Origin: Alphaproteobacteria bacterium
GTDB taxonomy: Bacteria > Pseudomonadota > Alphaproteobacteria > Rs-D84
Assembly: GCA_017524525.1 (NCBI GenBank)
Contig: JAFXVM010000003.1
Coordinates: forward strand, 1,836-65,835
Length of the DNA stretch: 64,000 nucleotides
Direction of reading: 5' to 3'
Shown here: one piece after another, positions 1,818 through 58,960 of the stretch
Position numbering within the stretch: position 1 is the stretch's first letter
Layout: each line of letters begins with the position of its first letter
Made by a program: the position numbers and the translations under genes
Notes under the pieces: generated by a model
Told to the model about the DNA's origin: nothing
Databases searched by the model: none
What the model saw: the letters and a program-made list of their open reading frames with translations, nothing else

Positions 1818-2384
1818 ATGAAAATAAATTCAATATCTTTAATTTCTATTATTTCAACATTGGCTTGTATGTCAACAGCAAACGCTGGCGTGATTGCAGA
1901 TTTTTATGTCGGCGGCATGGCTGGGGCTGGCGGACAAACTATGTTTGCAGATCATAAAAACGAAACAGATTCTTCTATGGTATTTGGTGCTATTGCTGGT
2001 ATGGATTTGCCAGTGTTTAGAATCGAAGCAGAATACGATTATTTTCATGCAAAAGATTTCAATACTAATGCAGCATTGGCAAATATCTATGCAAAAATAC
2101 CTTCTACTATAATCTTGCCTTATATTGGGGCTGGTATTGGTATGGTGTTTGGTGGCGATCAAACTTTTACAAATTCTGGATTGGAAACAAAATACAAAGT
2201 TGATTCAACCGCCGCATATCAGGCTATGTTGGGTGCAACAATCGATGTTTTAGCAATTCCATTAAAATTCGATGTCGAAGGTCGTGTTTTATATGCTCCG
2301 GATATTTATGAAATCCCTGGCACACATACATCACCTGATATGTTGCAATATAACGTACGCGTAAAAGCACGCTTTATATTCTAG
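1818..2384 (+). CDS. Small outer-membrane beta-barrel protein (OmpA-like barrel / Opa-porin type)
   Basis: Signal peptide ...MSTANA, alternating beta-strand pattern, C-terminal aromatic residue (RVKARFIF). RBS AAGGAG lies upstream. Confidence 0.7.
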   Translation: MKINSISLISIISTLACMSTANAGVIADFYVGGMAGAGGQTMFADHKNETDSSMVFGAIAGMDLPVFRIEAEYDYFHAKDFNTNAALANIYAKIPSTIILPYIGAGIGMVFGGDQTFTNSGLETKYKVDSTAAYQAMLGATIDVLAIPLKFDVEGRVLYAPDIYEIPGTHTSPDMLQYNVRVKARFIF

Positions 2385-2393
2385 GGTTAATAA

Positions 2394-5165
2394 ATGCTAA
2401 CATTAATTGACGGAAATTCGCTGGTATTCAGGGCATATTACGGTGTTCACGGTAATTTAACCAGATCTGATAATATGCCCATCGGCGCTGTGTACGGATT
2501 CTTTAATATGGTATTGCCTGTATTAGCAAAGGCAAAACCGCAAGATTCTTTCGTATGCGTATTTGATGCTTCTCGCATCAGTTTCCGTCAAGACATTTAT
2601 CCTCTATACAAAGCCAACCGCAAAGAAACACCTGCTGATTTATTACAACAAAGCGAACTTATTCGAATCGGTGTTCACGAAATGGGGATACCTGTGTTAT
2701 GTATTCCCGGGGTCGAAGCAGACGATGTAATTGCGACACTGGCAACACAATATTGCAATATTGATGGTGGCACGCGTATTATCACTGGCGACAAAGATTT
2801 AATGCAATTAGTGTCTAACTGCACTTTCCTTTATGACGGAATGAAAGAAAAAGAAATTCACGAAGGGGAAGTCTTTGAAAAATTCGGTGTAACTCCTTCA
2901 CAAGTTATTGATGTTCAATCTTTGATGGGTGATTCCACAGATAATGTTCCGGGTGTCCCAGGTATTGGTCCAAAAAAGGCAACTGAACTCGTCAATGAAT
3001 TTAAATCTCTTGATAATTTATATGCCAATTTAGATTCAGTTAAAAACGAAAGAATTCGCAATTTATTAAAAGAAAATCGTAACCAAGCATATATTTCTAG
3101 ACAACTTGTCACACTTAAACGTGATGTAGATTTAAGTGGTTTACAAATAACACCTTTTTGTTTTAATAAAAACACAGCAATTGATTTCGTACAAAATAAA
3201 ATTGAAAGCAAAACCTTAATTGCGAAAATAGAAAAACTTTTTCCTGGCGATAAAATTACTTGCACACCGTCAGTCACAGAATACGAAAAATCCATTTGCC
3301 CTGTTGTTGATATTCCAACACCAACAGAAACAAAATCAACTCTTGGCGAAATGAACATAATCACAATTTCAACAGAACATGAATTAGATGCGTTTTTATC
3401 TAATGTCAAAGACGTTATCGCTTTTGACACAGAAACCACAGGATTAAATCAAACAGATGATAAAATTGTCGGCATTTCGCTTGCTTTTGACGACACACAC
3501 GGTGCTTATATTCCCGTGCGACATATAACAAAATCGGCTGATTTGTTTGGTGGGGGAAATTTGGTTGATAACCAATTATCAATTGAAACAGTTTATAAAA
3601 AACTTTGGCCGATATTCACAAACCCAAAGATAACTAAAATCGCGCACAATATTAAATATGATTTACATATCTTGGATAATGAAGGTTGGGACATAACAAA
3701 AATATCACCTGTGGACGACACAATGTTGTTATCTTATGCGTTGCACGGCGCATTACATGGACACGGTTTGGATGAATTGGCTGAAAAATATTTGGGGCAC
3801 CAAGACATAAAATTCGAAGATTTGTTTGACGCAAAAACCAAAGATTGCGACAGACACTTTGAAACATTACCTATTGAAATTGCCACAAAATATTCAGGCG
3901 AAGATTCAATTGTATGTATGGCATTATACAATTTGATGCGCCCGCAATTAAACGAAAATCAAAAATTGCGCGAATTATACGAAACTTGCGATTTACCATT
4001 ATGTCTTATTTTATGTTTAATGGAAAAACAAGGTGTTGCGGTCAATCGCGACAGACTAAATCAGTTATCAAGCGTTTTTCATAAACAATTGGAAAAATTA
4101 GAAACTGAAATTTATGATTTAGCAGGCCACGAATTTAACGTGGGCAGCCCGAAACAATTGGCAACTGTATTGTTCGAAGAATTGCATTTGCCATCCAAGA
4201 AAAAACAATCTACGGACGCAGATACTTTGAACGATTTGTTGGAACATCACCCAATTATCGAAAAAATATTAAATTGGCGTTCTATCGCTAAATTGGCCAG
4301 CACTTACGCGGATGCCCTGCCCCACCAGATTGCAACAGACGGTAGAATACATACAACTTATTTACAAACCAGTACGAACACAGGCCGCCTGTCCAGCCGC
4401 AATCCAAATCTTCAAAACATTCCTATAAAAACAGAATTAGGCGAAGAAATAAGAAAATGCTTTGTCGCACCTGCTGGCAAAACTTTGATAAGTGTTGATT
4501 ATTCACAAATACAGTTGCGTCTGCTGGCAGATGTTGCAAATGTAAAAATATTCAAAGACACATTTAATGCAGGACTTGATATTCACGAACAGACTGCACG
4601 CAAAATATTTAATATCCCAGACAGCACAATTGTTCCAAAAGATTTAAGACGCGCTGCAAAAACAATAAACTTTTCCATTATTTATGGGATTTCGGCATTT
4701 GGATTGGCTAACCAATTAAATATCTCACGCGAAGAAGCGAAAAAAATCATAGATTCTTATATGGCAGGCTTGCCAGAAATCAAAGAATATATCGACCATA
4801 TAACTAAATTCGTATTTGAAAAACATTGCGTTTATACACCATGGGGACGCAGGATTGAAATTCCCGAAGCATCCAACCCGCGTATGCGCGGATATGTAGC
4901 GCGCGCAGCAATCAACGCCCCCATCCAAGGATTCGAAGCGGACATCGTCCGTCATGCGATGGTGAACGTGTATAACAATATCGTTGTTCCAAATAACGAC
5001 AAAATAAAAATGATTCTTCAGGTTCACGATGAAATAATATTTGAATGTGATGAAAAAAAAGCAAAAGATTTTGCTAAAAAAATTCAAAACGAAATGGAAA
5101 ATGTCACAAAATTGTCTGTGCCGCTTTTAACCGAAGCAATAATTTCACCAATTTGGGATAAATAG
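2394..5165 (+). CDS. polA: DNA polymerase I
   Basis: 923 aa. 5' nuclease N-terminus (LIDGNSLVFRAYY), 3'-5' exo motif (AFDTETTGL), and polymerase motifs (DYSQIQLRLLA, QVHDE). Confidence 0.97.
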   Translation: MLTLIDGNSLVFRAYYGVHGNLTRSDNMPIGAVYGFFNMVLPVLAKAKPQDSFVCVFDASRISFRQDIYPLYKANRKETPADLLQQSELIRIGVHEMGIPVLCIPGVEADDVIATLATQYCNIDGGTRIITGDKDLMQLVSNCTFLYDGMKEKEIHEGEVFEKFGVTPSQVIDVQSLMGDSTDNVPGVPGIGPKKATELVNEFKSLDNLYANLDSVKNERIRNLLKENRNQAYISRQLVTLKRDVDLSGLQITPFCFNKNTAIDFVQNKIESKTLIAKIEKLFPGDKITCTPSVTEYEKSICPVVDIPTPTETKSTLGEMNIITISTEHELDAFLSNVKDVIAFDTETTGLNQTDDKIVGISLAFDDTHGAYIPVRHITKSADLFGGGNLVDNQLSIETVYKKLWPIFTNPKITKIAHNIKYDLHILDNEGWDITKISPVDDTMLLSYALHGALHGHGLDELAEKYLGHQDIKFEDLFDAKTKDCDRHFETLPIEIATKYSGEDSIVCMALYNLMRPQLNENQKLRELYETCDLPLCLILCLMEKQGVAVNRDRLNQLSSVFHKQLEKLETEIYDLAGHEFNVGSPKQLATVLFEELHLPSKKKQSTDADTLNDLLEHHPIIEKILNWRSIAKLASTYADALPHQIATDGRIHTTYLQTSTNTGRLSSRNPNLQNIPIKTELGEEIRKCFVAPAGKTLISVDYSQIQLRLLADVANVKIFKDTFNAGLDIHEQTARKIFNIPDSTIVPKDLRRAAKTINFSIIYGISAFGLANQLNISREEAKKIIDSYMAGLPEIKEYIDHITKFVFEKHCVYTPWGRRIEIPEASNPRMRGYVARAAINAPIQGFEADIVRHAMVNVYNNIVVPNNDKIKMILQVHDEIIFECDEKKAKDFAKKIQNEMENVTKLSVPLLTEAIISPIWDK

Positions 5166-7106: not shown

Positions 7107-7754
7107 TTATAACATTTTTCTTATTTGCGGGATTTTAATTCCTTGGGCATCACAAACATCACAAAGAAATTTTTTTGTCACATTTAAATCAACCGGTAAT
7201 TTATACAATTTTTCTTTATACGGTTCACCACAATCACGGCAAACCGCCCTTCCCGTCTTTGGAGAAAGATAACACAAATCATTTGTTTTTTGACAACCAG
7301 AACATTTTGTTAAATCCAGCGCATAACCTAAATCATGCAATAAATTTATTTCCCAATCTAAATATAAATCCCACGGATTGTCTGTACCATTTAAATCATT
7401 TAATAATGCAAAAGTTTTTTTATATAAATCGTTATACGATTCGCGTTCTGGAATCAAAGTATAAATCAAAGCAAAAACACAATTCATAATTTTTAATAAA
7501 TCAGCATTCATCATCAAAGCCGCAGATAAATTTTTTTCATTTTCAAAATGAAACACACCTAGTTGCGAATCAAGCCGTGCGTTCCACGACAGTCGTCCAA
7601 ATTGCCCAACCAGCGGTTTATTTTTTTTCGCGACCACCGCGCCCCGCAACATCCCGACCAGAACACCATTATCACAAGTAAAAATATGCGCCAGCGCATC
7701 CCTTTCATTAAAAGGTTTTATATTTATCAAAATACCAGTTGTTTCAATTTGCAT
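7107..7754 (-). CDS. recO: DNA repair protein RecO
   Basis: 215 aa. N-terminal OB-fold pattern (GILINIKPFNERDALAHIFT) and a C-terminal Cys4 zinc motif (CSGC...CRDC). Confidence 0.85.
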   Translation of the reverse strand: MQIETTGILINIKPFNERDALAHIFTCDNGVLVGMLRGAVVAKKNKPLVGQFGRLSWNARLDSQLGVFHFENEKNLSAALMMNADLLKIMNCVFALIYTLIPERESYNDLYKKTFALLNDLNGTDNPWDLYLDWEINLLHDLGYALDLTKCSGCQKTNDLCYLSPKTGRAVCRDCGEPYKEKLYKLPVDLNVTKKFLCDVCDAQGIKIPQIRKML

Positions 7755-7816
7755 ACCCTTATTATATATAAGAATAAAAAATTTTATAAAGAAAAAATCG
7801 CCATTCGGCGATTTGT

Positions 7817-8278
7817 TTACATATATTGTTTAATACGTCTAGATACAAAGGTTAAATCTTTTTGTTTTGCTGCCAATTTTTGTTGTTCGACCAATAATGC
7901 AGTTTCCTTTACTTTTTTATCACACAAATTGAATAACTTTTCTAATTTTTCAATTTCACCAAAATCTTCGCTTGAAAAACTTTCATTACCCCCCAAAAAA
8001 ACTATTTTATATTTGTTAGGCGCATGTTTATGAATCCAAAAAATATTTCTGTCGCCATCCATTGGATAAACTTCAATCATCAATTTATCTAATTCATAAT
8101 AACACGCCTTTACTTTACCAGGTGTTTCCAGCAACTTTATACAATCATCCAACAATTCAGCAAAAGAAACCAGTTTTTCAGGTTCGACAACCTGTGGTTC
8201 AATTTTTTTCATTCCCAATGCTGCCGGTTTTGTTTTCTTTAAAAATTTGCCTATAAAATTTTTTAATTTCCCTGACAT
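7817..8278 (-). CDS. Hypothetical protein
   Basis: 153-aa ORF in a codirectional gene string, with a terminator hairpin at 7792-7817. No motif recognised. Confidence 0.5.
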   Translation of the reverse strand: MSGKLKNFIGKFLKKTKPAALGMKKIEPQVVEPEKLVSFAELLDDCIKLLETPGKVKACYYELDKLMIEVYPMDGDRNIFWIHKHAPNKYKIVFLGGNESFSSEDFGEIEKLEKLFNLCDKKVKETALLVEQQKLAAKQKDLTFVSRRIKQYM

Positions 8279-53132: not shown

Positions 53133-53864
53133 TTAACTTTTCTTGAAATACAATTTCGCATATTCAGCAATTACATTAATCATAATTTGACGATAGCCAA
53201 ATTTGTCCCAATTATGCGAAGACACATACAAAGACGGTCTAAAATCTGCGAACTTGGTATTTTCCCAATCTATAAAGAAAGTAATATCAAAAGTTTTTGT
53301 ATCCAGCATAAAGTTTTGCCAAATATCATCCTGACACCAGCCATACAAAAAGCCAGGTCTATCAGATTGATTTGGTTTCAAATCACGAATTTCGATTGGG
53401 TCTTGTTTTCCAATCACATACAAAAAATTAGCAATTTGTTTTGCAATATGTTCACTGTGTTCTGCAATTACCTTTGGTGAAACATCAGTTAACAAAGTCC
53501 CTTTGGCAAATTCATATTTTCTTATGTAAATATTCTTATAAGGAATTACTTTTACCAAAGGAATTTTAATTGGTGAAATTCCATAAAACGCATCAACGAT
53601 TCTTTTTTCACGAATCGAAACATCTTTGCCATCAGTCAACAAAGGAAATTTGAAAACATGTTTATTATTCAAAATCACGATAAAATTTTTGCATCCATAT
53701 CCAACAACTGTTCTTATCTTTTTCTTTTCCATATTACGTGCGAATTTACAAACATATCGAACATAGTCCCGCGTTTGCGGAAAACGAATCCGCGTGCGCA
53801 CTTTGTCACGTAAACGCTTAGACCAAATAAAACCACAAATTATATTAGATATAAGATGTCGCAT
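53133..53864 (-). CDS. Phosphotransferase (APH/choline-kinase fold)-like protein
   Basis: QDDIWQNFML followed by FIDWENT resembles the HxDxxxxN ... IDWE catalytic/Mg loop pair, with Gln in place of His. Confidence 0.4.
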   Translation of the reverse strand: MRHLISNIICGFIWSKRLRDKVRTRIRFPQTRDYVRYVCKFARNMEKKKIRTVVGYGCKNFIVILNNKHVFKFPLLTDGKDVSIREKRIVDAFYGISPIKIPLVKVIPYKNIYIRKYEFAKGTLLTDVSPKVIAEHSEHIAKQIANFLYVIGKQDPIEIRDLKPNQSDRPGFLYGWCQDDIWQNFMLDTKTFDITFFIDWENTKFADFRPSLYVSSHNWDKFGYRQIMINVIAEYAKLYFKKS

Positions 53865-53977: not shown

Positions 53978-54051
53978 TGGGGTATAGTTTAATGGTAGAA
54001 CAGCAGACTCTGACTCTGTATATCGCGGTTCGAGTCCGTGTACCCCAACCA
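53978..54051 (+). tRNA. tRNA-Gln (anticodon CUG), CCA encoded
   Basis: Hand-folded: TGGGGTA/TACCCCA acceptor, GCAGA-CTCTGAC-TCTGT anticodon arm, CGCGG-TTCGAGT-CCGTG T arm, then ACCA. Confidence 0.9.
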
Positions 54052-54387: not shown

Positions 54388-54487
54388 CCGTTCGTTTCAG
54401 AGCGGGTTTTTGTTTGTTTTCTAATACTTTCACCGAGTTCGAAAGTTAAAATTAAAAAAGTGGCGATTTTTCGCCACTTTCGAACTC
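54388..54487. repeat. Terminator-associated repeat, copy C
   Basis: Hairpin CCGTTC/GAGCGG plus a T-run, spacer ttttctaatactttcacc, and long-range stem gagttcgaaag...ctttcgaactc enclosing hairpin GTGGCGA/TCGCCAC. Confidence 0.7.
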
Positions 54488-54498
54488 TTTATAAAATA

Positions 54499-54957
54499 TC
54501 ATTTTCTAAAAGGCACATTTGCACTCCATTCTTTACCTTTGTATTCTTGTTTTACTGGTTCACAATAATATCCAACGCCAGAATTGTATTTTTCAAAAGA
54601 AATATCATATTGAACTATCATATGTTTTTTTGAATCTAAAGCCATAGATAATTTTGCTTCTTTTGTTGTGCCTGGTAATATTCCTTTGTATTCTAATAAA
54701 TAATAACCTGGTTCATATTCTTCATTTTTTATTTGTGTAAAAATTTCTGTTTGTTTGTCTATAGAAACTTCTGCTTTATCAGAATATGTTTTTACGTTGA
54801 CGATAACAGGGATTTTATTTTTTGAAGAATTTGTCATGCCTTCTTCCATATATGTTTTATAATCATAATCTATATCACATTTTAGTTCTGCTTCTGATGA
54901 AGGTCTGTTACATGCTGCCAATGCCAACAACATGGGTAAAATAAGTAATTTTTTCAT
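54499..54957 (-). CDS. Lipoprotein, unknown function
   Basis: Lipobox LALAAC. 152 aa. RBS AAAGGAG upstream. Confidence 0.65.
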   Translation of the reverse strand: MKKLLILPMLLALAACNRPSSEAELKCDIDYDYKTYMEEGMTNSSKNKIPVIVNVKTYSDKAEVSIDKQTEIFTQIKNEEYEPGYYLLEYKGILPGTTKEAKLSMALDSKKHMIVQYDISFEKYNSGVGYYCEPVKQEYKGKEWSANVPFRK

Positions 54958-55183
54958 AAAAACTCCTTTCTATTCACGAAAAATTATATCATAGATTGTT
55001 AGTTAACACAAATTTATTTATTCTAAAACATCTTTCATCCCATCAATCTCTTGTCCGATTTGTATCAATTCGGCTCGCGAATTGTGCAGACAGCACAATA
55101 AAAAATTCACCTTGCTGGAATTTTAAAAAATAGTACAATGTATTCAAGCACAACAAAAATATACTAACAAAGGAAGGTTTTAT

Positions 55184-55360
55184 ATGAATTCTTATGACCA
55201 AGCCGTTAATTTAGTAAAAACAACAAAAAACGCGACCATATCTTTTCTTCAACGCAATTTGAATATCAGTTATAACAAAGCCGCTGAATATTTAAACCAA
55301 ATGGAAAAAGCGGGTATTGTTTCACCAATGAATGCCGAATTCAAAAGAACTGTTCTTTAA
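55184..55360 (+). CDS. Stand-alone FtsK-gamma-like winged-helix DNA-binding protein (58 aa)
   Basis: Not in the ORF track (<60 aa). RBS AAGGAAGG. ATISFLQRNLNISYNKAAEYLNQMEKAGIVSPMNAEFKRTVL matches the FtsK gamma pattern S-x-LQR-x-L-x-IGYNRAA-x-L-x3-E-x2-GIV...R-x-VL. Confidence 0.65.
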   Translation: MNSYDQAVNLVKTTKNATISFLQRNLNISYNKAAEYLNQMEKAGIVSPMNAEFKRTVL

Positions 55361-55382
55361 AATCAACCAAGAGGGAACAAAC

Positions 55383-56231
55383 ATGTTAAAAATAGACGAA
55401 GCTAAAATGAAAAAAATCATTCAACAAGAAAATGCTGCACGCGATAAAATACCACTTGTCCAGTTTTGGAGACAGGCTAAGTTTTACAAAGACACTTTTA
55501 TCTTGGAAGACGAATACCCAGAAATCGAAAAAGCAAAACTTTTGATTTCAAATGAAGAAATTGATGCAGACAAAGCCCCCAGAAAAATACACCCAAAATT
55601 ACAACCTGAACCTTTTGTCGGGGATTTGGCTTTGGCAAAATGTTTTGTTGTGACATTAAATCCACGCGCTGGGATTCCTTATGCCGAAGAATACAGAAAT
55701 TGGGAAAATCCGCTGTTGCAAAAAATTACAAAACAAAACATTATCCAAGACCGCAGAATGTACCCTTTTTATTATCTGGACCCAGAATTAGAAAATACTG
55801 GTGGTGGACAATGGTGGTTAAAAGCATTGGGTATTGATACAACAGATTCCCAAACATCAATTAAACAAACAATTGTACCAAATAAATACTTAAGACGATT
55901 GGTCGCAACACTGTTTTGTGATTTAGAATTATGCCCATATCATTCTAATCAATGGGATAACAAAAAATTAAAACAGTTGATTATCAACAAAAAATTAAAA
56001 TCGAGTCTTATGATAATAGATTTTATCAAAGAAATTATTCAAGACCCCGAAAAAACAATATTTATTCGTGGAGACAAAGACAGCGGTTATGCATCACAAA
56101 TTTTACAGCACTTTATCCCTGAATTAAAGCACGACCTGCCAAATGTTCATTACATATCTGGTCAGCGCGTATGGTTGCAGCCAACATCAAAAAATGGCAA
56201 AATATTGTTTGATAAAATTTTGAACCAATAA
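55383..56231 (+). CDS. Hypothetical 282-aa protein (faint UDG-superfamily-like motif order)
   Basis: The ATG at 55383 follows GAGGGA. FVVTLNPRAG ... ELCPYHS. No confident family assignment. Confidence 0.6.
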   Translation: MLKIDEAKMKKIIQQENAARDKIPLVQFWRQAKFYKDTFILEDEYPEIEKAKLLISNEEIDADKAPRKIHPKLQPEPFVGDLALAKCFVVTLNPRAGIPYAEEYRNWENPLLQKITKQNIIQDRRMYPFYYLDPELENTGGGQWWLKALGIDTTDSQTSIKQTIVPNKYLRRLVATLFCDLELCPYHSNQWDNKKLKQLIINKKLKSSLMIIDFIKEIIQDPEKTIFIRGDKDSGYASQILQHFIPELKHDLPNVHYISGQRVWLQPTSKNGKILFDKILNQ

Positions 56232-56256
56232 CAAATTTAACCAAAGGGACGAACCT

Positions 56257-56400
56257 ATGGCTTATATAGTAAGTTTTCGTGGACAAATTGTTGCTGGACC
56301 TTTTCCCATCGAAGGAATGGCAATAAATGCTGCTGTGAAGAAAGCAAAAGAACTTAACAACACATACCCAGTAAGCGAATTCAAAGTACAAAAAGTTTAA
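56257..56400 (+). CDS. Small hypothetical protein (47 aa)
   Basis: RBS AAAGGGA 6 nt before the ATG. Third ORF of the putative 55184 operon. Confidence 0.35.
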   Translation: MAYIVSFRGQIVAGPFPIEGMAINAAVKKAKELNNTYPVSEFKVQKV

Positions 56401-56405
56401 ATCTT

Positions 56406-57986
56406 TTAAACTCTTCCCTGCTTTCTGCGTATCACAGCATTCATATCCGCTTTGTTTTTTGATAATTGCTTTTCAGATTTTTGTCTGGATTGGGCGCGTG
56501 TTATCGCTTTTTGATAAAGGTTATCATATTTAACGCGACCATTATCCCCAGCAACACCATAGTTTTTGTAATATTTTATTGCTTGCTGATATTTTGCGAT
56601 GGCATCTTTGTATTTCCCAGCCGTTTCATAAACACTTCCTGCTTTATAGCACGCATTAGAATATGCCGACACTTCATCTGTTTCCAAAATCTTGTTAAAA
56701 TATTCCAAACTTTTATCATATTGTTGCAATTCAGCATAAGTCGCAGCAATATCATTTAACAAATCAGTTCCATAAACGCCCTGCTTTTCCATAGATAAAA
56801 ATTGTTTCAAAGCATCTTCATAATTGCCTTGACCAACAAAATGATTTGCTTTGGCATATTCGTCTTTGATTTCTTCTACGTTTTTGTCTTGTTTTTCTTG
56901 CACTACATAAGTAAAAAGTTTTTTTACATTTTTATCATTACATATTTCGCCAACTGTGAGACCTGGGACACTGGTATAAACAACATTAGAATAAGCCGCA
57001 GCCGTTTTTTCACACCATTCCTTGTAATTCCATTTGTTCAAAGTCGCTCTTTGAACATGTTTTGTTCCCAAACAAGACGAACGACGTCCAGGACACACAG
57101 AAAAATTCAGCATTTGTTCACATAAACTGTCTTGGTTTAAAAACACAGCCGCTTCATTTGCACATCTGTATTTAAACCCAGAATTTGACGCGACATTTCT
57201 GTCCCAAAACATAATAATATCAGCACACATCAATTTGTCTTTGTATTCTTTCTTGATTTTTGGAAAAATCGTATTGATAGTGCTGGGGTTATTATAAGCC
57301 ATACAGAATATCGCAGAAAATTCATTAGGTGTTAATTCACATCCTTGTAATTTTTCAAACATACGATCAAGGACTGTTTTATCACTTTTTACAAACTGCT
57401 TAGTTTTTGGATTCTGCGTCACCGTTCTGTATTTTGCCCAACCAATAACCAATTTCAACATGTCTGCATAAGTTATAGTTTTGTTTGCAAAAATCTTTTG
57501 ATTTGAAGCCAAATGATACCATTTTGCTTCTGGGTTATCGTAATCGTTTATGTCTAATGGCGAATAAGTCGAACCAACGCCAAATGTATTTTTTGTACCC
57601 CTGTATAAACCATGATCATCATAAGCAATCTTCATAGGAACTTCTTCTAAAATCAATTCTGCAAAAATTATGTTTAATGATTTATCGAACAGAGCATACA
57701 TATCTTCCACAGTGTTCAACTTCACAGGCGAATAATCCATCGGTTGCTGTAAAACTTTGACTTTTTGTGGTTCTTGCACAACATCTTGGGCGACCAATTC
57801 AGTTTGCTTTGGTGATTTATGTTGTGTTTTGACATCAGGCTTTTTCAAAGCATTTCCGCCAAACACCAACCCGCCAACCAATGCAGCCCCCGCAACTATA
57901 CGTTTAGCCTTGCTTGGTTTTACAACTTTTTTAACTGTGTTTTTTATTTTTTGAATTGCTGATTTAACTTTCTTTTGTTCAGCCAT
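56406..57986 (-). CDS. Membrane-anchored GH24 (phage-type) lysozyme domain protein with C-terminal TPR repeats
   Basis: Start at MAEQKK (AAGGAGAA upstream). Gly/Ala-rich anchor IVAGAALVGGLVFGGNAL. EEVPMKIAYDDHG...TFGVGST fits the E-x8-D...T-[IF]-G-V-G signature of T4/P22 lysozymes. NEFSAIFCMAYN. TPR-like GNYEDALKQF..., YDKSLEYFNKIL..., GKYKDAIAKYQQAI. Confidence 0.75.
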   Translation of the reverse strand: MAEQKKVKSAIQKIKNTVKKVVKPSKAKRIVAGAALVGGLVFGGNALKKPDVKTQHKSPKQTELVAQDVVQEPQKVKVLQQPMDYSPVKLNTVEDMYALFDKSLNIIFAELILEEVPMKIAYDDHGLYRGTKNTFGVGSTYSPLDINDYDNPEAKWYHLASNQKIFANKTITYADMLKLVIGWAKYRTVTQNPKTKQFVKSDKTVLDRMFEKLQGCELTPNEFSAIFCMAYNNPSTINTIFPKIKKEYKDKLMCADIIMFWDRNVASNSGFKYRCANEAAVFLNQDSLCEQMLNFSVCPGRRSSCLGTKHVQRATLNKWNYKEWCEKTAAAYSNVVYTSVPGLTVGEICNDKNVKKLFTYVVQEKQDKNVEEIKDEYAKANHFVGQGNYEDALKQFLSMEKQGVYGTDLLNDIAATYAELQQYDKSLEYFNKILETDEVSAYSNACYKAGSVYETAGKYKDAIAKYQQAIKYYKNYGVAGDNGRVKYDNLYQKAITRAQSRQKSEKQLSKNKADMNAVIRRKQGRV

Positions 57987-58025
57987 AATTTTCTCCTTAA
58001 ACTTATACATTCATTATAGTACATT

Positions 58026-58763
58026 TTAAAGAGATTTCAAAATATCCGTTTTAAAATTTGCAAAACCGTCATGTGACGCAGATTTTATGATGATAATATC
58101 TTTTTCATCCGCCCATTGTTTTACCAAACTTTCAGGAACGTTTTCATCGCGCCCCCCAACAAAATGCTTTTGCGGAACAGACGGCAATTTTTCCATATTC
58201 AAAGATTTATTTAATGGTTCGTCTTTGTGATAATCAGTCCATTGTTTGTGATTTAACACCCCCGCGACAGTAATCCATTTATCAAACTTTAATTTTGGGT
58301 TTTGATTTATTACCAACCCCGAAACCATAGCCCCCCCAGAATAACCAATCAAAACAATATGTTTATTTTTCGCAATTTGTTTTATGGCGTTGCTTTGAGC
58401 ATCTATGATTTTTTTGGAAAACCTGCCATTTGTCCAATCGCTTTCGTCGCAATTTTTATCCATTATAAATTGACAAACCCGCGCCATATAAACAACATTT
58501 TCAAAACCATCAGCCGCCGCCAAATCACGAACAAAAGTTCCACGTGGCGTTGGATTATTTGTCGGTTGGCCATACGCATCAAAAGCGTACCCATCACCTT
58601 CGATATAAATATGAACAGTATTATTTTTTGGATTATTTATCTTTTGCCAAGTTGCGATTTCATAAGTATCTGTTTGAATTGGCGCATACACAAACCCATC
58701 AGGCGCACCCCAATTTACACCACCACACGCAGTTAACAACAAAAACAACACAACCCGCTTCAT
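58026..58763 (-). CDS. Alpha/beta-hydrolase lipoprotein
   Basis: Start set at MKRVVLFLLLTAC (lipobox). Nucleophile elbow LIGYSGGA. The listed longer ORF starts at 58793. Confidence 0.65.
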   Translation of the reverse strand: MKRVVLFLLLTACGGVNWGAPDGFVYAPIQTDTYEIATWQKINNPKNNTVHIYIEGDGYAFDAYGQPTNNPTPRGTFVRDLAAADGFENVVYMARVCQFIMDKNCDESDWTNGRFSKKIIDAQSNAIKQIAKNKHIVLIGYSGGAMVSGLVINQNPKLKFDKWITVAGVLNHKQWTDYHKDEPLNKSLNMEKLPSVPQKHFVGGRDENVPESLVKQWADEKDIIIIKSASHDGFANFKTDILKSL

Positions 58764-58960
58764 ACCCCCATAATCGCATTTCTGCACAAACAATTCAAGG
58801 GAATAAAAGTGTTACACAAGAGATCAAAAAAACAACCATTAGTATTCATGCCCATTTAACGTAAAATAAAAAAATTTTTGCATTACTGGAAAACGATTTT
58901 TTTTGTGTTATAATCAGCCCTGTTGATAAAAAACAACACTATCAAAAAAGGAAAAATATC

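Follow-up and report, generated by a model that had tools for sequence, protein, structure and literature searches.

A stand-alone FtsK-gamma protein beside a Brig1-related glycosylase-like enzyme in a rumen alphaproteobacterium: a candidate split antiviral operon

The DNA considered here (referred to as the window) is a stretch of 64,000 nucleotides of contig JAFXVM010000003.1 from a rumen alphaproteobacterium (assembly GCA_017524525.1). The locus of interest within it consists of three open reading frames (ORFs) on the forward strand, encoding a 58-amino-acid (aa) stand-alone FtsK-gamma protein, a 282-aa glycosylase-like enzyme related to Brig1 and a conserved 47-aa protein (orf47), which face a convergent 526-aa ORF on the reverse strand (Table 1). 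The forward ORFs are closely spaced (22 nt between the gamma ORF and that of the enzyme, 25 nt between the latter and orf47), and each has a Shine-Dalgarno-like AGGA or GGGA 6-7 nt ahead of its ATG. A check of the ORFs bore out the genes and spacings of this trio as given in a preliminary description of the locus; the enzyme ORF stood as well, with a length of 282 aa rather than the 283 reported, since the earlier figure included the stop codon. It seems that positions 55043-56400 form one operon, and that this operon is the gene-fission version of a protein combining a DNA-binding domain with a base-excision enzyme, a reading to which we would assign a probability of roughly 0.55. In what follows, labels L001-L027 denote homologous loci or contigs in relatives, and labels of the form P plus four digits denote homologous proteins.

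Table 1. Coordinates of the genes and sequence features at the locus (positions in the window)
Feature	Position	Strand	Remarks
tRNA-Gln	53978-54051		1.1 kb from the block
Conserved upstream region	55043..55183	+	three 7-nt-arm inverted repeats, putative promoter
Inverted repeats, 7-nt arms	55066-55084, 55081-55099, 55102-55124		perfect arms; in a 226-nt intergenic region
Putative promoter	-35 TTGCTG 55112-55117, -10 TACAAT 55134-55139	+	read from the sequence
58-aa stand-alone FtsK-gamma winged-helix protein	55184..55360	+	PF09397
282-aa Brig1-related (UDG-superfamily) glycosylase-like protein	55383..56231	+	ATG at 55383, stop ends at 56231
47-aa conserved small protein (orf47)	56257..56400	+	third gene of the operon
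526-aa predicted exported GH24-like muramidase (GH24-TPR)	56406..57986	-	GH24-like domain, then Cys-rich region, TPRs, long C-terminal helix
Sigma-70-like promoter of the GH24-TPR gene	58013..58040	-	TTGAAA-16-TATAAT, 11/12 matches

The 58-aa protein is an FtsK-gamma winged helix, as had been proposed: its match to Pfam PF09397 is complete and high-scoring (E 1.8e-19, 69.7 bits against a cut-off of 30.6), with residues 3-58 corresponding to profile positions 6-61 of 63, and it aligns with residues 1295-1349 of the E. coli-type FtsK model NF007615. Because the ORF has its own ribosome-binding site (RBS) and stop codon, it is not the C-terminal domain of an FtsK/SpoIIIE translocase. What it shares with FtsK/SpoIIIE is the full-length match to the KOPS-reading winged helix, whereas the domain stands alone in the window and, in relatives, sits on a glycosylase-like enzyme instead of a translocase motor. 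Among the loci compared, a stand-alone gamma was not seen outside this species-level clade, within which the gamma gene is 97-99% identical at the nucleotide level (in L019 and L005). A 122-aa 'FtsK_gamma' gene call in L022 proved to be merely an upstream extension of the ORF across the promoter region. A literature search on FtsK-gamma together with glycosylases returned nothing.

The link between the 58-aa protein and the enzyme comes from the relatives. In P0005-P0007 (350-360 aa, 53-56% identical) the same enzyme begins with a fused FtsK-gamma domain, and the junction of this fused form (...KRTVL, followed by a linker) lies at the exact place where the window has ...KRTVL, a stop codon, the 22-nt spacer and an ATG. 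By tblastn, the fused form was seen in L003, L006, L007 and L012. The split form, with the same stop codon and spacer, is present in the independent assemblies L005, L019 and L022-L024; a third form, which lacks gamma altogether, is found in L001, L002, L010 and L011. The same stop codon, 22-nt spacer and RBS recur in four or more independent assemblies, and comparison of the strains shows purifying selection on all three genes of the operon, with synonymous versus non-synonymous codon differences in the enzyme of 30 versus 15 (relative to L019) and 17 versus 8 (relative to L005). The conservation of these signals, together with purifying selection on both parts, indicates that the split is real and functional, and excludes a frameshift or pseudogene as its source. 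Since relatives carry gamma fused to the enzyme, the window appears to hold the gene-fission form of one protein, and no other evidence argues as strongly as this (Rosetta-stone) relation between fusion and fission for joint action of the 58-aa protein and the enzyme on DNA. That the 58-aa protein should be a regulator and nothing more seems less likely on these comparisons, with which autoregulation remains compatible.

The start of the enzyme allows a second reading, as an alternative in-frame ATG at 55332 would give a protein of 299 aa that overlaps the gamma ORF by 29 nt. The first 17 residues of this longer form (MPNSKELFFKINQEGTN) are similar to the true N-terminus of the homologues that lack gamma (MFKYSKELECQINKSG), and it may be that the gamma-less lineages gained their start from what remained of the 3' end of the gamma gene, read in a different frame.

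Direct scans of the 282-aa protein against Pfam, PHROGs, PADLOC and NCBIfam yielded nothing usable beyond a 14-bit hint of Brig1. A word-indexed search returned eight relatives (43-97% identity), and an exhaustive HMMER search with the alignment of the relatives found at least 942 representative clusters (at 50% identity) with E<=1e-3, of which 230 had E<=1e-10; the members are mostly 240-280 aa long. The window protein scores 140 bits (E 4e-39) against a hidden Markov model of 57 members that are less than 30% identical to it. The Brig1 model NF047634 is matched at E<=0.01 by 59 of 70 sampled members (best E 9.5e-11, scores of 17-40 bits), and no other glycosylase or enzyme family recurs among the 70. 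These matches span profile positions 41-155 (i.e. about 110 residues) and include Y121 and E147, which are experimentally essential in Brig1, an anti-phage alpha-glucosyl-5hmC DNA glycosylase (PMC11078745). Judging from these profile matches, Brig1 and the family of the 282-aa protein are homologues, at a level well below that of an equivalog.

Conserved throughout the family are W29, H70, P77, G80, L92-N93-P94-G95, Y100, E103, Q122, Y127-P128-F129 and W145, and further along E182, P185-Y186-H187-S188, S207 and R229, all of which the window protein retains save G95 (Arg). N93 and P94 are invariant in 70 sequences, W145 is kept in 68/70 and E182 in 67/70, and P185-Y-H-S188 is nearly invariant. 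In the AlphaFold2 (AF2) model of the enzyme (predicted local distance difference test (pLDDT) 85.5, predicted template modelling score 0.87) N93-P94 comes right after the first core strand (87-91), giving a loop of the motif A type (L92-N93-P94-[G/R]95), and E182 ends the next core strand; this modelled placement matches the arrangement of the UDG superfamily. Coordinate mapping (i.e. without residue alignment) puts S188 at profile position 149 and E182 at 143, consistently in four members, and W145 at about 117 in one member (P0078), which, given a small numbering offset, would bring W145 and E182 within a few positions of Brig1 Y121 and E147. The preliminary description had seen a faint hint of UDG motifs A and B in TLNPRAG and CPYHS. 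The hint is supported by the matches of the family to the Brig1 model, and the first of the two sequences does fit motif A; the second is conserved, but it lies in the region of Brig1 N145/E147 (beta-2) and is not motif B.

As in MUG/TDG and SMUG1, a beta-strand in the enzyme is followed by [L/I]-N-P-G, with the Asn as the likely catalytic residue, and its aromatic-x-P-F and Trp align with FPF...FW of E. coli MUG: hhalign pairs LNPG with GINPG, YPF with FPF and W145 with FW, at a probability of 1.3%, which is not significant. The family further differs from MUG/TDG/SMUG1 in an insertion of ~22 residues between the motifs and in having neither an HPS motif B nor a Pfam UDG match. Rossmann-like Foldseek matches of the AF2 model (macrodomains, DprA, alpha/beta hydrolases) were insignificant and are not taken as homology.

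Homology with the strains L005 and L019 begins at 55043, so that the upstream region of the operon belongs to the conserved block; the tRNA-proximal segment (a lipoprotein gene and the tRNA trailer) is separate and strain-variable. Positions 54400-55043, including the 152-aa lipoprotein gene, are not common to L005, L019 or the contig from run X9, and the differing left flanks meet the conserved block at about 55043-55066. The inverted repeat ATTGTGC-N5-GCACAAT, described earlier at 55081-55099, is present and is one of three such perfect repeats. Taken alone it is not statistically unusual, as dinucleotide shuffles of the intergenic region contain at least one 7-nt-arm repeat in 23% of cases, compared to 2.9% for at least three. 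In L005 and L022 its arms are intact around a different loop, and in L019 it carries one compensatory pair change and one mismatch. One of the three repeats brackets the -35 element, and the repeats are a possible operator. The promoter TTGCTG-N16-TACAAT (55112-55139) is likewise present as described, but its -35 element has only 3/6 matches and it is absent from the list of the promoter scan. In one metatranscriptome, contigs at 97-99% identity represent gamma and the two ends of the enzyme gene, and a single contig spans the junction between the enzyme and orf47.

The nucleotide identity of orf47 between strains (98.6-99.3%) is above that of its neighbours. Relative to L019 and L005 there are 3 differences at 2 codons, 0 of them non-synonymous, and the protein is 100% identical in L005, L019 and L022. 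Direct family scans of the 47-aa protein (Pfam, PHROGs, PADLOC, NCBIfam) gave no usable match. A 79% identical homologue (P0183) occurs in L020 and L021, directly behind a 684-aa IetA-like AAA+ gene, at loci flanked by a hydrolase 53% identical and an autotransporter 38% identical to those of the window. In an operon with a stand-alone gamma, the 47-aa ORF was found only in this species-level clade, and the idea of a universal trio is therefore not borne out.

In all four fused loci (L003, L006, L007 and L012) the fused gene lies directly after a gene for an IetA-like AAA+ ATPase of 683-685 aa, which matches the PADLOC IetA models at E 1e-26 to 1e-32 and of which the ATPase in L020/L021 is an orthologue (56-69% identical). 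A divergent WYL (WYL/WCX) regulator adjoins the ATPase in L003 (one of the fused loci) and in L020. This two-gene module, ATPase first and fused gamma/glycosylase-like gene second, spans 2797-7083 in L003 and 5730-8852 in L006 and is also found in L007 and L012; in L020 (3777-7144), as in L021, the 47-aa protein takes the place of the glycosylase behind the ATPase. The co-occurrences of ATPase, gamma/glycosylase and orf47 thus amount to a pairwise recurrence at one hotspot, next to the autotransporter and the FSH1-like hydrolase, and the ATPase with its fused partner is a candidate multi-gene defence system.

Elsewhere in the family, L004 (8475-11561) holds, ~1.7 kb from the family member, a SIR2_2 gene, a gene for a ~357-aa protein and one for a 459-aa protein with a weak Piwi match, with a WYL/WCX gene on the other side of the member; the SIR2/Piwi set resembles a short-Argonaute/SIR2 defence system. 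In L013-L015 a WYL regulator, a 363-aa protein, the family member and a DUF2779/Cas4-like nuclease occur together. By our own count, defence-type neighbours are present in about 3/7 independent contexts, and they are suggestive only. The earlier idea of a small defence module gains from the Brig1 homology and from the IetA-like ATPase, WYL, SIR2-Piwi and Cas4-like contexts in relatives. A kinase-fold protein of the APH type (243 aa, window 53133-53864) also recurs near family genes: L020 has two tandem kinase paralogues (2307-3763), 65% and 42% identical to that of the window, and in L008 an unrelated APH-like kinase (7300-8004) ends 15 nt ahead of the family member.

Antiviral DNA glycosylases, i.e. 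Brig1-3 and Dag1/2, were described in 2024-2026, and few families of them are known. The locus is best read as a new architectural variant of the Brig-type enzymes, and the three-gene operon is probably a phage-defence unit. Like Brig1, the enzyme is a single-domain protein of about 250-280 aa, and the ~110 residues over which its family is homologous to Brig1 include the tested pocket residues; as with Brig1-3, several members lie beside defence genes and WYL regulators. Its invariant Asn-Pro loop is like the catalytic N50-P51 of Brig3 (10.64898/2026.02.25.707755), which is grouped here, as is Brig2 (10.1101/2025.10.29.685425), with Brig1, and as in brig3-bapA an accessory gene follows in the same operon. 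The family differs from Brig1 in its scores (14-40 bits versus a cut-off of 230 bits) and in an N-terminal helical extension, and from the Brig systems in its partners, which are an IetA-like AAA+ ATPase and a 47-aa protein. An FtsK-gamma module, whether fused or split, is without mention in the Brig papers searched. The resemblance to IetAS lies in the ATPase of the relatives and its IetA matches; in contrast to IetAS, the partner is a glycosylase-like enzyme or orf47 and not the IetS protease, and the ATPase is absent from the window.

In the mechanism that we infer (glycosylase activity, substrate and antiviral role, as well as the roles of gamma and orf47), a base would be flipped into a pocket lined by the conserved aromatics Y127-P-F129 and W145, after which the N-glycosidic bond would be hydrolysed by the Asn93-Pro94 loop and Glu182. 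The abasic sites left behind would block replication of DNA bearing the recognised base, for which a modified base of phage DNA is the most plausible candidate. The gamma winged helix of the 58-aa protein would supply double-stranded-DNA binding in trans, and it may also act on the inverted repeats around the -35 element and so control its own operon. As an accessory, orf47 could regulate or inhibit the enzyme, or act as an adaptor to the ATPase that partners the enzyme in relatives. A more far-reaching proposal, offered tentatively and with rather more doubt than belief, is that the gamma/glycosylase pair and orf47, with the ATPase in sister lineages (and WYL at one locus), make up an undescribed multi-component anti-phage system, in which the captured gamma would guide or license base excision, e.g. 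by distinguishing host from invader through the polarity of the sequence or the structure of the DNA, with the small protein or the ATPase acting as a gate on the enzyme.

For the convergent 526-aa protein, the proposed combination of GH24 and TPRs, as well as the Gly/Ala-rich N-terminus and the Cys-rich region, held up in profile matches and in the conservation among 25 homologues. Pfam places TPR_2, TPR_12, TPR_16 and TPR_1 above cut-off at about residues 377-476; Phage_lysozyme (PF00959) does not reach the window protein itself and is matched by 8/25 homologues (best E 5e-4). The profile of the homologue family (24 clusters, 37-93% identity) finds the endolysin 7M5I (E 2.5e-5) and the lysozyme 9KBQ (E 0.019; E 0.023 with the single sequence) over the C-lobe motifs, pairing PNEFSALFCAVYNN with QNEFDALVSETYN and GTKDRCEFEALVYLN with GLKNRRRMEADIYLD. 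E114, E115, D124 and T134-x-G-x-G-S-T are invariant in the 25 homologues (HMMER aligned the C-lobe only), giving the pattern E115-x8-D124, and C254, C275 and C289 are invariant too. In the AF2 model (pLDDT 83.7) residues 18-77 are disordered and are followed by a lysozyme-like domain, a Cys-rich connector, the TPRs and a long C-terminal helix; Foldseek (PDB, BFVD) matched TPR structures at a template modelling score of about 0.8, and the TPR hits swamped the lysozyme domain. The hydrophobic N-terminal stretch, after which comes a disordered linker of ~45 residues, may serve as a signal peptide or as an anchor; signal-peptide ends of the AxA type are seen in many homologues. The start at 57986 is favoured because of the promoter at 58013-58040 and an AAGGAG 7 nt upstream. 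Contigs of the metatranscriptome mentioned above cover this gene as well.

With phage-type GH24 lysozymes the protein shares the C-lobe motifs, an E-x8-D...T pattern of putative catalytic residues and the Gly/Ala-rich hydrophobic N-terminus, whereas it differs in being encoded by a chromosomal gene without a lysis cassette, in its Cys-rich region and TPRs, and in a 4-residue insertion before the Thr. It lacks the setting and layout expected of a signal-anchor-release (SAR) endolysin, there being no lysis cassette or phage genes and the catalytic domain not following directly after the anchor. Homologues lie on contigs of up to 246 kb, near genes for DHFR, glycosyltransferases (L016), TcpQ-secretin, ribosomal protein S20, DprA and DnaA (L018), and this setting among core chromosomal genes, together with the lack of phage genes, argues for a resident exported muramidase instead of a prophage endolysin. 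By its sequence it is a predicted host cell-wall hydrolase, unrelated to the operon. In L018 (4366-8446) the homologue is directly downstream of TcpQ and secretin genes in the same orientation, which by analogy hints at peptidoglycan cutting for an envelope-spanning machine, TPR proteins being typical secretin pilotins; for the gene in the window a secretin link was dropped, as no secretin was found there. The trio adjoins the GH24-TPR gene in every clade member examined (the window, L005, L019 and L022-L024; L025 ends after orf47) and nowhere outside this species-level clade. Between the window (56406-58793) and L005 (5042-7422) the GH24-TPR protein is only 71% and the FSH1-like hydrolase 76% identical, compared to 97-100% for gamma, the enzyme, orf47, the 243-aa kinase-like protein and the DUF1015 protein. 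Identity drops at the 5-nt convergent gap (56401-56405), as if the alleles of two exported proteins had been replaced or had diversified by recombination. A chromosomal phage-type muramidase on a TPR scaffold, with strongly diverged alleles in near-identical strains, is of lesser interest than the operon.

A number of observations weigh against the reading of the operon as a split, Brig-related base-excision protein. The window protein itself scores only 14.2 bits (E 0.022) against NF047634, for which the curated equivalog cut-off is 230 bits; Pfam UDG (PF03167) is matched by 0/70 members at E<=0.01, and a UDG motif B of the HPS type was not recognised in the 282-aa protein or its family. Sequence-profile searches of the PDB with two family profiles gave zero matches at E<=10, and the structural check suggested for the enzyme, which did produce a confident AF2 model, found no significant Foldseek match in the PDB and no UDG in the top 50. 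The RNA support consists of a few low-depth contigs, possibly including some DNA carry-over. Within about 5 kb in the window there is no known defence gene, several family members have ordinary neighbourhoods (those of L008 and L027, for instance, are unremarkable), and in relatives at ~53% identity the gene sits in a roughly conserved neighbourhood (autotransporter, FSH1-like hydrolase), which would also fit a resident repair enzyme.

The last point leads to the alternative that the enzyme is a housekeeping repair glycosylase of the lineage, acting on a spontaneous lesion (uracil, or an oxidised or alkylated base) with gamma as a DNA clamp, and not an immune gene. The similar chromosomal neighbourhood in the ~53% identical relatives, the lack of mobile-element genes, a G+C content only slightly under that of the flanks (0.30-0.36 versus 0.38-0.40) and the member in L027 amid ordinary genes are all in keeping with such a role, as is the weak uracil activity of Brig1 itself (PMC11078745). 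It is nevertheless unlikely, because close relatives differ in architecture and partners (gamma may be fused, split off or missing, and the ATPase and orf47 are each present in some and lacking in others), because the enzyme is coupled to an IetA-like ATPase and WYL regulators and has SIR2/Piwi and Cas4-like neighbours, and because the only annotated family matched is antiviral. Somewhat less probable again is a regulatory or addiction module, in which gamma would be a repressor at the palindrome, the enzyme a toxic DNA-damaging protein and orf47 its antitoxin or inhibitor, like Ugi for UDG. Tight spacing with an RBS for each gene, the extreme conservation of orf47 and the three inverted repeats that surround the promoter, one of which (55081-55099) has arms conserved between strains, would all suit such a module, but a single 7-nt repeat is expected in 23% of shuffles, and the fusion of gamma to the enzyme in sister lineages argues for DNA binding by the enzyme over repression alone. 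Moreover, most glycosylase loci have no orf47, that of L020 stands by the ATPase with no glycosylase next to it, and the proteins of the trio have no match among toxin-antitoxin or PADLOC models.

By far the least probable is the reading of the preliminary description, namely a phage-like islet at 55.0-58.0 kb, left by a decayed prophage or integrative and conjugative element at tRNA-Gln, with GH24-TPR as its SAR-type endolysin. Near the locus there is no integrase, transposase or phage gene (holin, spanin and structural genes included), against which the matches of the gamma domain to several PHROG families, the pairing of a GH24 domain with a Gly/Ala-rich N-terminal hydrophobic stretch and a tRNA gene 1.1 kb away count for little. 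The 45-residue disordered linker between the hydrophobic stretch and the catalytic domain speaks against the endolysin, and a prophage origin of its gene had to be given up, since homologues (24 clusters, 37-93%) are conserved amid core chromosomal genes elsewhere. Nor does the tRNA point to an integrated island, as the segment between it and 55043 is separate and strain-variable and homology starts only at 55043. The locus is better described as a small operon of defence type that occupies a variable hotspot of the chromosome.

Taken as a Brig-type system, the operon leads to a Brig1-related family of much greater size, which has no fewer than 942 clusters (50% identity) and for which neither Pfam nor PADLOC gave a matching model. 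It also represents a new architecture, in which the enzyme would have recruited FtsK-gamma, as a fusion or as a separate subunit, and would be paired with an AAA+ ATPase and a very small conserved protein. If this is true, the substrate and host range of base-excision immunity would be widened to gut and rumen bacteria, and the naturally occurring fused and split forms would allow the coupling of DNA targeting and base excision to be tested.

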